Assembly (NCBI GenBank): GCA_964388265.1
Contig: CAYLXZ010000008.1
Location: forward strand, 1-29,512
DNA: 29,512 nucleotides
Source: Candidatus Micrarchaeota archaeon
Lineage (GTDB): Archaea > B1Sed10-29
Direction of reading: 5' to 3'
This document shows positions 1,771 to 24,760 of the stretch, piece by piece (the stretch's first letter is position 1; each line of letters opens with the position of its first letter). A program made the translations under genes and the position numbers. The notes under the pieces are model-generated. The model worked only from the letters and a program-made list of their open reading frames with translations. It made no database searches and was not told the origin of the DNA.

Positions 1771-1847
1771 TTTAGGCACTACATCGTCTGTTTCAAGAGG
1801 ATGTAGGAACTACATCTTTCTTTTCCAAAGGATGCAGGAACTACATC
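1771..1847. repeat. Three 31-bp-periodic copies of the AGG(C/A)ACTACATC motif
   Basis: CTACATC at 1779, 1810 and 1841; middle copy is palindromic (GATGTAG-GAA-CTACATC); closely similar block at 22100-22144. Confidence 0.85.
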
Positions 1848-1896: not shown

Positions 1897-2832
1897 ATGG
1901 ATGAAATGAAGAAGACCGCGGAAACAGCACTAAAAAAATGCCTGAAACTAAAAGAAAACGAGGACTTCATAGTAATAACAGATAAAAAAACCCAGGAAAT
2001 AGGAGAAGCATTCTACAGAGCAGGAGAAGAAAAAACAGAAGAAACCTACCTGCTAAAAGTACCGGAACAAGAACTAGGAGAAACAGAACCACCTGAACTA
2101 GCTGGTAGAATAATGGAAGAAACACCAGCAGACGTAATAGTGATTCCAACTCAGAGCTCATACTCCCACACGGAAGCAAGAGAAAAAGCCAATAAGAAAG
2201 GAACTAGAATAGCCACTCTACCAGGGATAACTGAAGAGATATTCAAAAGAACCATAGACATAGACTACAAGAAACTCAGAAAAGAAGGAAAAAAACTCAA
2301 GAAGAAACTGGAAAAAGCATCCAAAGCCAGGATAAAAACCAGCTCAGGCACAAACCTAAACCTAAAACTATCTAACAAAGTAATTCCGGATCTCGGGCAG
2401 ATAAACGAACCTGGAACGTACGGGAACCTACCCACCGGCGAAGTATTCACAGCTCCAGACAAAAAAGAAGTGAACGGAAAGATAGTCATAGATTCAATGC
2501 AAGACATAGCAAAACCAAAAACCAAGGTACTAGTACAGAACGGAGAAGCACAAGACGTAGAAGGAGACAAAGAATTCAAAGAAAAACTATGGAGACATGA
2601 AAACGGTAGAAACATAGCGGAGTTCGGAATAGGTTTAAATCCCAACGCAACCCTCACCGGAAACATCCTAGAGGACGAAAAAGTAAAAGGGACCTGCCAC
2701 ATAGCCTTTGGGAAAAACAAAGACTTCGGAGGAAAAGTAGACTCCAAGATACACTGGGACGCCATACTAATACAGCCAGATATCTGGCTGGATGAAGAAA
2801 AACTAATGGAAGAAGGAGAGCTAATTCTCTAA
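1897..2832 (+). CDS. Aminopeptidase, M29 (AmpS/aminopeptidase T) family
   Basis: Motifs SHT.AR, GNLPTGEVFTAP, NIAEFGIGLNP, LEDEK..GTCHIAFG, IHWD. Confidence 0.9.
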   Translation: MDEMKKTAETALKKCLKLKENEDFIVITDKKTQEIGEAFYRAGEEKTEETYLLKVPEQELGETEPPELAGRIMEETPADVIVIPTQSSYSHTEAREKANKKGTRIATLPGITEEIFKRTIDIDYKKLRKEGKKLKKKLEKASKARIKTSSGTNLNLKLSNKVIPDLGQINEPGTYGNLPTGEVFTAPDKKEVNGKIVIDSMQDIAKPKTKVLVQNGEAQDVEGDKEFKEKLWRHENGRNIAEFGIGLNPNATLTGNILEDEKVKGTCHIAFGKNKDFGGKVDSKIHWDAILIQPDIWLDEEKLMEEGELIL

Positions 2833-14801: not shown

Positions 14802-15131
14802 TTAATCTGTGCCTTTTTGTGTTTTTTTTTCTCCGTATAGGTAGGTTCTTTCTGCTTCATACTCTAGGCATCTGTAGATTACTCTGGAGTTCTCTTGATC
14901 CATCTTGATCTTCAGTGTATTACCTGGCTTCCAGTATCTAAGGCAATTCGGACATATTCTCCTTTTCAAGTCATTTGGGATGGATACGTTGTATCTTTTG
15001 GAGATCTTGTGCGCTAGCTCCATGTATCTATTCGATCTCTCTGGATGGTCTTCGAACTCTTTTTCAGCTTGTTTGAACAGCTTCTTTATTCTTTTCTCAG
15101 CTAGTTCCTTAACCCATCCTGGCTTTGACAT
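14802..15131 (-). CDS. rnp4: RNase P protein Rpp21 (Rpr2)
   Basis: A..RI..LF..A, RY..LA..IS.RY, KRRICPNC....PG; second Zn knuckle reads CLEY. Confidence 0.9.
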   Translation of the reverse strand: MSKPGWVKELAEKRIKKLFKQAEKEFEDHPERSNRYMELAHKISKRYNVSIPNDLKRRICPNCLRYWKPGNTLKIKMDQENSRVIYRCLEYEAERTYLYGEKKTQKGTD

Positions 15132-15210: not shown

Positions 15211-15225
15211 TTTTAGGCACTACAT
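15211..15225. repeat. Single copy of dispersed TTTTAGGCACTACAT motif
   Basis: Same 14-mer as at 1771, 22100 and (reverse complement) 24452 and 24476. Confidence 0.8.
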
Positions 15226-15293: not shown

Positions 15294-15397
15294 TGCGCCG
15301 GACGGGATTCGAACCCGTGCTGTTGGCTTGGAAGGCCAAAGTATACCAGCCTAGCCAATAATAAGGCAAAGGCTCCTAGCCGCTAGACCACCGGCGC
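15294..15397 (-). tRNA. tRNA-Gly(TCC) with 32-nt non-canonical intron at 23/24 (15343-15374)
   Basis: Acceptor GCGCCGG/CCGGCGC-A, anticodon arm TTGGC-CTTCCAA-GCCAA, T arm ACGGG-TTCGAAT-CCCGT; removing the intron restores D stem GTCT/GGAC. Confidence 0.93.
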
Positions 15398-15427
15398 GTC
15401 AATGTATATTTTCACTTGCAGTATATT

Positions 15428-15999: not shown

Positions 16000-16142
16000 T
16001 GGGAAGACAGGGATTTGAACCCCGGACAACCGCCTTTCCGAAGGAAAGCTCTGCTCTTCAGGGCTTAGAGGAAACTGAGTTTCCTCTACGCATGAAGAAC
16101 TCCGTTCTTCAGGGCGGCGCTCTCCCGCTGAGCTATCTTCCC
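16000..16142 (-). tRNA. tRNA-Phe(GAA) with 71-nt intron at 37/38 (16036-16106)
   Basis: GGGAAGA/TCTTCCC-A acceptor, GCTC/GAGC D stem, CCGCC/GGCGG anticodon stem, CTGAAG^A loop; central helix CTGA/TCGG and AA^A bulge. Confidence 0.92.
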
Positions 16143-16178: not shown

Positions 16179-16299
16179 TGGGCCGGACGGGGTTTGAACC
16201 CGCGGCTACCAGGTTTCTTCGAAACTCCAGATGTATCCTAAAGGGATTTAGAGAAGTTTCTTAAAAGCCTGGTGCTCTCCCAGACTGAGCTACCGGCCC
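16179..16299 (-). tRNA. tRNA-Lys(TTT) with 47-nt intron at 37/38 (16215-16261)
   Basis: GGGCCGG/CCGGCCC-A acceptor, CCAGG/CCTGG stem, CTTTTA^A loop; clean BHB (CTTT/GAAG, GAAACTTC/GGAGTTTC). Confidence 0.95.
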
Positions 16300-21929: not shown

Positions 21930-22035
21930 AGCGGGGTGGGGCAGCCTGGAGTGCCCGGCGGGCTCATAAAAAAGGTTGAGCTTCAACCTTCTTTGAGATA
22001 CCCGCAGGTCAGTGGTCCAAATCCACTCCCCGCTA
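21930..22035 (+). tRNA. Initiator tRNA-Met(CAT) with 31-nt intron at 37/38 (21969-21999)
   Basis: A1:T72 (AGCGGGG/CCCCGCT-A), GGG/CCC anticodon-stem pairs, CTCATA^A loop; BHB CTCA/TGAG with TA^A and AT^A bulges. Confidence 0.95.
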
Positions 22036-22097: not shown

Positions 22098-22157
22098 TTT
22101 TTAGGCACTACATCGTTCTCTTCTAAAGGATGTAGGAACTACATTGGAGCCTAAAAA
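22098..22157. repeat. 60-bp MITE/REP-like unit with two CTACAT motifs
   Basis: Ends TTTTTAGGC...GCCTAAAAA (9-bp inverted); CTACAT at 22108 and 22139, 31 bp apart. Confidence 0.75.
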
Positions 22158-22214: not shown

Positions 22215-22976
22215 ATGGAAAAAGAAGAGATGGAAGACCTCCTGTATAAACTAGGACTATCAAACTATCAGGCTCGATTATACAAAGCTCTCGTTAACCT
22301 AGAAGAAGGAACAGTATCTAAAATAGCTAAAGAAGCAGAAATACCAACCAACAAAGCCTACGGAGACCTAGAATGGCTATACGAAAACGAATTCATATCA
22401 CTATCTTCCAAAAAACCTCTAAGATACAAAATAATAGATCCAGAAGTAGTTTTACAGTCAAAGATAGAAAGAAGAATAAATAAACTAGAAAATTTAAAAG
22501 ATAAGACCAGTGAAGTTGTTTCTAATCCTAAAAAAACCAAGAAAAGCAGCGATGTCTCCATATTAAGAGGTAGAGACCTATTCTTTTCCCGAATGAAGAA
22601 ACAACTTAGAAACTGTGAAAACTCCGTACTAGCAACTATAGGAACAAGTAGAGTTGATTCAGAGTTACTGAAAATAGAGGAAGAAGTTACTTCTAGAGGA
22701 GTAGATATGAGATTCATAGCTGGCTACAACGAAGATGCCGTGCCTAGAATAAAGAAACATATAGATGTAGGGGTAAACGTACGGTTTTCAGAACAAGAAA
22801 ACGTTCGGTTTACAGTATGGGATGAGGAAGTGATTACTTTTAGGGTTCACACAGAGAATGATGAAGATTACTACTCTATATGGATAGAGAGCCCTGCTCT
22901 AGCGAGAATAATGAAATCTTACTTCAATACAGTTTGGGAAAGTAGCTTTAAGAAAGAAGAAATACTTAATAAATAG
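22215..22976 (+). CDS. TrmB-family transcriptional regulator
   Basis: L..LGLS.YQARLY.AL......T...IA....IP..KAY..L..L...; KPLRY...DP; C-terminal effector domain ending YF...WE. Confidence 0.9.
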   Translation: MEKEEMEDLLYKLGLSNYQARLYKALVNLEEGTVSKIAKEAEIPTNKAYGDLEWLYENEFISLSSKKPLRYKIIDPEVVLQSKIERRINKLENLKDKTSEVVSNPKKTKKSSDVSILRGRDLFFSRMKKQLRNCENSVLATIGTSRVDSELLKIEEEVTSRGVDMRFIAGYNEDAVPRIKKHIDVGVNVRFSEQENVRFTVWDEEVITFRVHTENDEDYYSIWIESPALARIMKSYFNTVWESSFKKEEILNK

Positions 22977-24412: not shown

Positions 24413-24432
24413 TAATACTGGAAGTAGGGGGT
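24413..24432. repeat. Direct repeat copy 1, TAATACTGGAAGTAGGGGGT
   Basis: Matches 24740-24760 except for one inserted T; contains TACT-N3-AGTA. Confidence 0.75.
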
Positions 24433-24451: not shown

Positions 24452-24489
24452 ATGTAGTGCCTAAAATATATTAAGATGTAGTGCCTAAA
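24452..24489 (+). promoter_or_regulatory. Two ATGTAGTGCCTAAA boxes bracketing a TATA box
   Basis: Exact 14-mers at 24452-24465 and 24476-24489, ATATATTAAG between them, ATG at 24497. Confidence 0.75.
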
Positions 24490-24496
24490 GATAACC

Positions 24497-24685
24497 ATGG
24501 TTTACCTCAGGAAGAAGGATATATATAGGAATGATTACTGGTATTTATGTAGGTCAAAAAGAGTCGATGGGGATGTAAAGCAGGAAGTAGTGTCTTATAT
24601 TGGTTCTTGTGGCTCTATATCTAGAGAGAAAGCTGAAGAAGAAAAAGAAAAGGTTCAGCATAGGTTAGATCAAGAACAGAATTAA
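24497..24685 (+). CDS. 62-aa putative DNA-binding protein resembling the N-terminal domain of IS1634-type transposases
   Basis: Pattern YLRKK.....YWYL..S.RVDG.VKQ.VV.YIG recognised from memory, no search run; TATA about 25 nt before ATG. Confidence 0.65.
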   Translation: MVYLRKKDIYRNDYWYLCRSKRVDGDVKQEVVSYIGSCGSISREKAEEEKEKVQHRLDQEQN

Positions 24686-24739: not shown

Positions 24740-24760
24740 TAATACTGGAAGTATGGGGGT
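24740..24760. repeat. Direct repeat copy 2, TAATACTGGAAGTATGGGGGT
   Basis: Partner of 24413-24432. Confidence 0.75.

Follow-up and report, generated by a model that had tools for sequence, protein, structure and literature searches.

A 62-residue relative of the IS1634 transposase N-terminus and the dispersed boxes at its promoter in a micrarchaeal genome

In the genome of a Candidatus Micrarchaeota archaeon, the gene of a 62-residue protein, ORF62, is preceded by two copies of a 14-nucleotide box, ATGTAGTGCCTAAA, that also recurs elsewhere in intergenic DNA. The question raised by this locus is what such a protein does and whether it is the reader of these boxes. The stretch analysed here (the window) is the 29,512-nt contig CAYLXZ010000008.1 of assembly GCA_964388265.1, which is contig C8 of the genome referred to below as G000 (725,682 bp in 45 contigs, 82% complete). 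A sequence-only reading of the window had proposed two possibilities, a domesticated, autoregulated DNA-binding protein with a regulon or the trans-acting factor of a miniature element family. The comparisons presented here favour the former, and we consider that ORF62 probably derives from a transposase and is an autoregulated DNA-binding protein with a small regulon, its binding to DNA being deduced from sequence.

ORF62 and the N-terminal domain of IS1634 transposases

ORF62 (positions 24497..24685 of the + strand, stop codon included) encodes a stand-alone 62-residue homologue of the domain with which IS1634-family transposases begin; the open frame around it comprises 67 residues only. 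Orthologues of 57-62 residues were found in two genomes from other genera of the same family, G001 (54% identity, E 8e-13) and G002 (50%, E 5e-15), and four further metagenome loci encode proteins 56-60% identical to ORF62. The gene order is kept in all three genera and consists of an ORF of 214-219 residues, a divergent PRC-barrel gene, ORF62 and a convergent gene for an ArsR-like winged-helix protein of 188-194 residues. Over the first 40 codons, the proportion of nonsynonymous differences (pN) was 0.01-0.26, the synonymous proportion (pS) was at least 0.49 and mostly saturated, and the ratio of the corresponding substitution rates (dN/dS) was 0.01-0.29 where estimable. A HMMER search of 1.84 billion representative proteins gave 13 relatives at E ≤ 0.001, mostly stand-alone proteins of 56-75 residues. 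No paralogue of ORF62 was found in its own genome, where tblastn gave chance-level matches only. Judged by this pattern of conservation, ORF62 is a real gene under purifying selection.

Pfam contained no family for ORF62 or for any of the 16 members of its alignment (A1), the only NCBIfam match was at chance level, a sequence-profile search of the PDB gave no match, and the ESM Atlas returned solely unnamed clusters of proteins of 59-62 residues. The AlphaFold2 model based on the 16-row alignment (pLDDT 93.7, pTM 0.73) predicts three antiparallel strands (residues 2-9, 12-23 and 26-37) followed by a helix (43-61), which corresponds to the build of integrase arm-type and AP2-like domains, a three-stranded antiparallel sheet packed on one helix. 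In arm-type and AP2 domains, such as those of lambda Int, Tn916 Int, the HPI integrase (3jtz) and ApiAP2 proteins, the sheet reads sites of about 10 bp. The structural search advised in the sequence-only reading placed the arm-type DNA-binding domain of the HPI integrase first in both aligners, though the match was weak in Foldseek (E 0.089, probability 0.89) and modest in VIA-align (Z 6.8, root-mean-square deviation 2.2 Å over 54 residues, 20% identity); further VIA-align matches were an AP2 domain (6sy0, Z 5.2) and lambda Int (1z1b, Z 4.1). ORF62 thus shares with these domains the predicted sheet and C-terminal helix but differs from them in having neither a Pfam nor a PDB profile match, and with modest scores of this kind we speak of the same general build and claim no membership of the arm-type/AP2 class.

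The profile of the ORF62 family matched 43 longer proteins at E ≤ 0.001, mostly DDE_Tnp_1 proteins of 500-590 residues, and several of the matches carry the source name IS1634 family transposase. Two transposases, P0024 and P0017, pass the NCBIfam IS1634 model NF033559 with 262.8 and 251.7 bits, respectively, against a cut-off of 100. The matching region corresponds to residues 1-44 of a verified IS1634 transposase (hhalign 97.1%, E 6.5e-11), ORF62 and P0017 are 49% identical over 37 residues in BLASTP, and the strand pattern ...Y.Y.V.S.R..GK..Q....YLG is common to ORF62 and the IS1634 N-terminus. The resemblance that had been proposed from the sequence alone was therefore borne out, as was the statement that no DDE domain follows. 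Since ORF62 ends after 62 residues without such a domain, it is no transposase. In addition, DDE_Tnp_1 (PF01609) had no match in the 82% complete G000, and together with the lack of a paralogue this means that ORF62 is no truncated copy of an intact insertion sequence in the assembled part of the genome, an origin that the earlier reading had named as the outcome that would speak against it. Compared with the IS4-related IS1634 transposases, ORF62 has a homologous N-terminus with the same strand pattern, and similar subterminal boxes occur in some of these elements (see below). In contrast to them, it has neither a linker nor a DDE domain, no inverted repeats were found around it, and it is a single-copy gene, syntenic in three genera and under purifying selection.

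One alternative would be that ORF62 is an open frame that arose by chance and is no gene. Its shortness and the lack of a Pfam match would suit such an explanation, but it is already contradicted by the syntenic orthologues, the low dN with saturated dS, the dozens of homologues, the confident fold and the homology to a transposase domain, and we regard it as hardly credible.

Modules of the ORF62 type also head Fic-domain proteins, AbiEii nucleotidyltransferases, B12-binding proteins and one class II aminoacyl-tRNA synthetase-like protein. The B12-binding proteins with the module are named by their source as MerR-type light-induced regulators (CarH-like). The N-terminus of Fic, AbiEii and B12-binding proteins is usually a DNA-binding domain, and by sequence comparison the module replaces this usual head in the B12-binding (CarH-like), Fic and AbiEii proteins. 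If the module is an autoregulatory DNA-binding domain, this would explain its place in front of these three kinds of protein.

Our literature search found no paper on an N-terminal DNA-binding domain of IS1634 transposases or on the ORF62 box. The matches listed for TAGTGCCTAA were all unrelated to judge from their titles and the beginnings of their abstracts, and in the accessible part of the text of a survey of the IS4 and IS1634 groups (PMC2266710) the word "N-terminal" is absent and the N-terminal region goes unmentioned. The IS1634 N-terminal region thus has no described function in the literature searched and no Pfam model, and the ORF62 locus gives it a concrete predicted DNA target. 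This target would be the core TGCCTAA, extended to TGTAGTGCCTAA in G000, and could be tested with the 62-residue protein and a 60-bp probe.

Boxes at the ORF62 promoter and with the module elsewhere

As had been noticed from the sequence, exact boxes lie on both sides of the TATA-like element of ORF62. Box 1 (ATGTAGTGCCTAAA, 24452..24465, + strand), whose TGCCTAA core starts 39 nt before the ATG, abuts the AT-rich TATA-like stretch TAAAATATATTAA (24462..24474, + strand; judged by eye), which is centred about 29 nt before the ATG. Box 2 (ATGTAGTGCCTAAA, 24476..24489, + strand), with its core at -15, occupies the space between this stretch and the start codon, and the ATG at 24497 follows 7 nt past it. 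TAAAATATATTAA sits between the two boxes, with some overlap. A box is found at the same -39 position in the relatives L073, L074 and L027. The position of the TATA-like stretch agrees with the archaeal TATA-to-start spacing expected for leaderless mRNA and implies a leaderless or nearly leaderless transcript. Around the ORF62 boxes Rfam gave no credible match, and no conserved RNA structure was found.

To judge how regularly boxes accompany the gene, 27 loci with stand-alone ORF62 homologues were gathered, 23 of them distinct. Within 160 nt upstream of the start, TGCCTAA was present in sense orientation at 21 of the 23 distinct loci (33 boxes), whereas its reverse complement, the reversed word and the complement of the latter each occurred zero times in the same regions; the background in the remainder of the loci was 0.035 per 160 nt. 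The loci without a box were L081 (identical to L082) and the distant L093, which encodes an 80-residue protein. At 13 of the 23 distinct loci there is a proximal box at -15 to -22, as a rule placed downstream of an AT-rich TATA-like stretch and ahead of the start; farther upstream, a second one is found at -39 to -42 in the family of ORF62 and at -77 to -91 in the other groups. Candidate sites over the gene's own core promoter, as expected under autoregulation, are therefore kept in relatives, and the co-occurrence of ORF and motif in relatives, for which the sequence-only reading had asked, was found.

The association was seen in chromosomal-type loci (seven) and in loci of an IS5-like element alike. 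In 15 of the 26 other homologue loci the small gene is divergent to a gene for an IS5-like DDE transposase of about 312 residues (Pfam DDE_Tnp_1, E 1e-6; NCBIfam IS5 model, E 4e-25, below the cut-off). Two copies of the element in G042 (L072:100-1336 and L104:1238-2472) align over 1,242 bp with 80.6% identity, and the 1.24-kb element has terminal inverted repeats GGCGTTGCGTGG and a target duplication of about 9 bp (both recognised by eye). Thus, the small gene is a component of an insertion sequence there. It encodes a 56-residue ORF62 homologue divergent from the 312-residue transposase, and two TGCCTAA boxes lie in the promoter region that both genes share. These boxes are internal, not at the ends of the element, and are unlike the repeats GGCGTTGCGTGG.

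Boxes also accompany the module where it is fused to other domains. Boxes of the TGTAGTGCCTA type lie at the start of a Fic-domain gene with the N-terminal module; in G018, the start of such a Fic-fusion gene is surrounded by TGGTGCCTAAC and by TGTAGTGCCTATA, the latter twice and inverted. The box of an AbiEii fusion gene is TATAGTGCCTAA, and that of an 83-residue frame in G008 is TGTAGTGCCTAGG. No good box match was found at three other fusion genes (AbiEii, B12-binding and Fic).

No IS1634-type transposase was found in 31 genomes of the phylum (query P0017, E ≤ 1e-20), and for this reason six distinct, plasmid-borne bacterial IS1634 elements were used for comparison of the element ends. Two diverged Rhodococcus copies have TGTATTACCTA 14 nt ahead of the transposase ATG and an inverted copy 15-17 nt after the stop, and they keep this box although their flanks and terminal repeats differ; TGTATTACCTA agrees with TGTAGTGCCTA at 9 of 11 positions. 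The Mesorhizobium element has ATGTAGTGGTAACA just after the stop and TGTGGTAACA upstream, and several boxes of the form (A/T)TGTAG(A/G)C are present in the Alicyclobacillus element. The related Cereibacter and Sulfitobacter elements have boxes of the GTTGTGGCA type, and nothing similar to the ORF62 box was seen in the Ralstonia element. The comparison with subterminal repeats of IS1634 elements, which the sequence-only reading had advised, therefore gave similar boxes in the elements of Rhodococcus, Mesorhizobium and Alicyclobacillus and no clearly similar ones in those of Cereibacter, Sulfitobacter and Ralstonia; the resemblance holds for some of the six but not for all.

All of these contexts have only the module in common, which makes it the most economical candidate for the box-binding protein. 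This has to be weighed against the alternative that another factor, for example the nearby TrmB-like or ArsR-like regulator, reads the box and that ORF62 is merely one of its targets. A box and a palindromic variant also precede the TrmB-like gene, and two boxes precede the ArsR-like neighbour in G001. Since ORF62 and both of these genes are syntenic, co-occurrence within the family cannot separate the candidate binders. Elsewhere, however, boxes accompany the module in the absence of those neighbours (the IS5-like element, the Fic fusion and the AbiEii fusion), and IS1634 elements with similar subterminal boxes encode no protein other than the one that carries this module. We therefore think it rather unlikely that a different factor is the reader.

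With ORF62 as the binder, the mechanism can be outlined as follows. The protein would be a sequence-specific DNA binder made solely of the N-terminal recognition module of IS1634-type transposases, in which one helix backs a sheet with a basic, aromatic face (R5 K6 K7, Y14 W15 Y16, R22, Q29, Y34 G36). Its predicted target is (A)TGTAGTGCCTAA(A), with TGCCTAA as the family-wide core. Since the boxes abut the TATA-like element and precede the start codon, ORF62 bound to the first box, proximal to the TFB recognition element and TATA, and to the second, between TATA and start, should hinder the assembly of the TATA-binding protein (TBP), TFB and RNA polymerase, and its own, probably leaderless, transcript would be repressed. 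At the 15 other exact and about nine variant boxes it may modulate neighbouring promoters, by activation or repression.

Short proteins of this design are known from other insertion sequences. IS1 InsA and IS911 OrfA contain the DNA-recognition part of the transposase, bind sites in the element or its promoter and lower expression; both are co-linear with the catalytic frame, to which they are fused by frameshifting. ORF62 resembles them in consisting of a DNA-recognition part only, and an ORF62 homologue is also present in the IS5-like elements, where the boxes lie in the region of the divergent promoters. In contrast to InsA and OrfA, the ORF62-type gene is divergent from the transposase gene in the IS5-like element or stands without any transposase in G000, where the boxes are dispersed at conserved host promoters. 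By analogy, ORF62 would work most like regulators of the InsA/OrfA type and, on the scale of the genome, like domesticated factors with dispersed sites.

Boxes across the genome

The remaining copies in the window occur where the sequence-only reading had placed them, at 1771, 15212 and 22100, all on the - strand, and every exact copy in the window is intergenic. The box at 22100..22113 lies upstream of the gene for the TrmB-like regulator (22215..22976, + strand); the palindromic variant ATGTAGGAACTACAT at 22130..22144, a two-mismatch match (22131), is 31 bp from it. The box at 15212..15225 is placed between a tRNA called by Rfam and the RNase P Rpr2 gene (14802..15131, - strand), 81 nt upstream of the latter, and an exact box is present at the orthologous site in G001. 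The box at 1771..1784 starts 3 nt past an RNA-ligase stop codon and is 113 nt upstream of an M29-peptidase-like gene (1897..2832, + strand); it is accompanied at 1801..1846 by variants at 31-bp spacing, ATGTAGGAACTACAT at 1801-1815 (two-mismatch match at 1802) and ATGCAGGAACTACAT at 1832-1846. In total, the window has seven matches to ATGTAGTGCCTAAA with at most two mismatches against 0.30 expected, and none of 100 shuffles reached seven.

Genome-wide mapping, likewise proposed from the sequence, gave 17 exact copies of ATGTAGTGCCTAAA in G000, none with one mismatch and nine with two, while matches with three mismatches were at background level; the reversed-pattern control gave 0, 0 and 3 matches with no, one and two mismatches, respectively. 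Real variants in the two-mismatch class are four copies of the palindrome ATGTAGGAACTACAT, each 31 bp from an exact box, and three that read xxGTAGTGCCTAAA. With a crude ORF caller, which covers 92% of G000, 14 of the 17 exact copies were outside ORFs of at least 70 residues. The host ORFs of two of the three "inside" copies (72-74 residues) are doubtful and regarded as spurious; the third copy is truly inside an intein-containing ORF of 980 residues (G000:C11:12995-13008, locus L011). This copy lies in the intein part and reads ...FDVVPKIG..., and an exact copy is also inside the 1384-residue orthologue in G002. The idea that TGCCTAA is avoided outside the motif was rejected: the word occurs 40 times (21 of them in the motif), against a median of 53 among equally composed words.

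The exact 14-mer is also present in G001 (10 copies), G002 (12) and G004 (2), and single matches were found in 2 of 36 other relatives, with one match for the reversed control. At least five box sites are orthologous between genera, and at each of them the box stays identical while the intergenic DNA around it has diverged. Of these, two precede ORF62 and Rpr2, respectively, one follows an Sm-like gene, one is at the end of a 162-residue gene and one comes after an intein-containing ATPase gene. At the 162-residue gene the box overlaps the last codon and the stop (ATG TAG) in two genera. Exact boxes are thus kept at orthologous intergenic sites despite saturated synonymous sites. Downstream of 27 of the 41 box sites in four genomes, a co-directional gene begins at a distance of 8-526 nt, and at 16 sites a divergent gene begins on the other side. 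Genes adjoining boxes in G000 include those for a single-repeat TBP, RNase P Rpr2, the TrmB-like regulator, an M29-type peptidase and an AP-endonuclease-2/xylose-isomerase-like protein. The single-repeat TBP is a protein of 90 residues (PF00352, 96.8 bits; G000:C10:7075-7347, L009:1156-1428), encoded 73 nt downstream of an exact box.

Some boxes are embedded in larger units. Tandem units of 31-32 bp (1801-1846 and 22130-22144 of the window, G000:C31:1179-1310 and L060 of G002) carry the box or the perfect palindrome ATGTAGGAACTACAT, and their number varies by genus; in the array behind the intein-ATPase gene, G002 has four box units and G000 two. Four copies of a hairpin unit, TTTTTGCAAACTTTTT-loop-AAAAAGTTT, were found (G000:C4:17529, C11:10369, C31:1221 and C35:1230), three of them directly before a box and one before a tRNA-like sequence.

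The boxes could alternatively be binding sites or decayed ends of miniature non-autonomous elements, with ORF62 as a trans-acting end-binder that mobilises, silences or immobilises them and is no gene regulator. Such a role would be in keeping with a module that is the N-terminal head of IS1634 transposases, with the similar subterminal boxes in some of these elements, with tandem box arrays of varying copy number, with the hairpin unit joined to three boxes and with the residence of most homologues outside the family of ORF62 in an IS5-like element. However, beyond 14-15 nt the sequences around the 17 copies are unrelated on inspection, save for the arrays and the hairpin, and inverted-repeat pairs or target duplications, which miniature inverted-repeat transposable elements should have, were not seen at them. 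Moreover, the orthologous sites persist between genera, neither a DDE_Tnp_1 match in the 82% complete G000 nor, with P0017 as query, an IS1634-type transposase in the 31 genomes of the phylum was found, and the boxes of the IS5-like element are internal and unlike its terminal repeats. The second possibility raised in the sequence-only reading is thus less supported, and we consider it unlikely, while the first draws support from boxes that travel with the module and from their conservation at orthologous sites.

It is also conceivable that ORF62, as a self-contained, autoregulated relic, binds its own promoter only and that the dispersed boxes are an RNA-level, architectural or terminator-associated signal. 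In G041 and G042 there is hardly any box outside the promoter(s) of the small gene, several boxes of G000 follow gene ends or hairpins, and one lies over the last codon and stop of the 162-residue gene. On the other hand, if ORF62 binds box 1 or box 2, the identical 14-mer elsewhere would be bound too; in addition, neither an Rfam family nor a conserved RNA structure was found around the ORF62 boxes, and co-directional gene starts lie downstream of 27 of the 41 sites. This explanation appears very unlikely to us.

Several observations nevertheless weigh against an autoregulated DNA-binding protein with a small regulon. What the analysis shows are the boxes and their conservation, the reality of the gene, its homology and the predicted fold; that ORF62 binds DNA is something we infer, and the repression, the regulon and the descent from a mobile element rather than the reverse are likewise deduced. 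The structural matches are weak, and Z scores below 8 may mean a mere common arrangement. An exact 14-bp word is long for a single sheet domain of 40 residues, and 17 sites with zero one-mismatch variants are sharper than a usual transcription factor regulon. The palindromic variant (ATGTAG-N3-CTACAT) hints at a dimer, and both this variant and the 31-bp arrays fit poorly, as does the copy inside the intein ORF that is kept in the G002 orthologue. Six of the 41 sites have no adjacent gene start (with crude ORF calls), and the distance between box and start varies from 8 to 526 nt. Three of the six IS1634 elements are without a clearly similar box. In G041 and G042, which have homologues borne by insertion sequences, the 9-mer TGTGCCTAA outside the promoter(s) of the small gene is mostly inside ORFs, and no dispersed regulon is evident. 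Finally, the related genomes are not independent, and the motif is found just as regularly together with each syntenic neighbour of ORF62.

Transposase-derived factors that were domesticated and whose cognate sites are dispersed are known from bacteria (RAYT/REP) and from eukaryotes (SETMAR and FHY3/FAR1). RAYTs keep the HUH catalytic domain, and REPs number hundreds. ORF62 is similar to the RAYT/REP and SETMAR type in being a single-copy transposase-derived gene flanked by its own candidate short sequence, which is scattered and conserved intergenically. It differs from RAYT/REP in consisting of the DNA-binding head only, with about 20 sites in a genome-reduced archaeon. If the binding holds, this would be a rare prokaryotic case in which a host has taken over the DNA-binding module of a transposase for regulation through a network of conserved sites, and it would provide a ready transcription factor/operator pair for an uncultivated archaeal lineage with almost no known regulation. 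As a tentative and considerably bolder proposal, an IS1634 head may have turned into a host transcription factor in this genome-reduced DPANN family, with boxes derived from subterminal sites of the insertion sequence, a regulon that includes the single-repeat TBP, Rpr2 and TrmB-like genes, and 20-nt repeats flanking ORF62 that are perhaps a target duplication. If true, it would parallel, in a prokaryote, the domestication of transposases in eukaryotes.

Repeats flanking ORF62 and other observations

ORF62 also lies between direct repeats of another conserved element, (A)ATACTGGAAGTAnGGGGGT, at 24415-24431 and 24742-24758; the conserved direct repeat ATACTGGAAGTAnGGGG has a length of about 20 nt, and no inverted repeats were found around ORF62. 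G000 has just two copies of the element, and the same arrangement was observed in G001 and G002 (also in L027, L028 and L042-L044). One to three copies with at most one mismatch were present in 22 of 41 relatives, compared with five matches for the reversed control, and ATACTGGAAGTAnGGGG is also present in other genomes that do not have ORF62. The element could go back to an old insertion of the IS1634 type, as its long target duplication. Beside an Mpg-like gene in G013 and G006, it forms a hairpin with a 12-bp stem, and Rfam gave no credible match for the element in three relatives. A possible role of ATACTGGAAGTAnGGGG as an origin recognition box was considered: the element resembles the Pyrococcus ORB1 sequence (PMC1904270) only loosely, and orc1/cdc6 is on another contig in all six genomes checked.

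The window also contains tRNA genes with long or unusually placed introns at 15294-15400, 16000-16142, 16179-16299 and about 21930-22035. ARAGORN called none of them, Rfam called three, one of these as a 59-nt part only, and the fourth, a tRNA-like sequence (about 21930-22035), was recognised by eye only.

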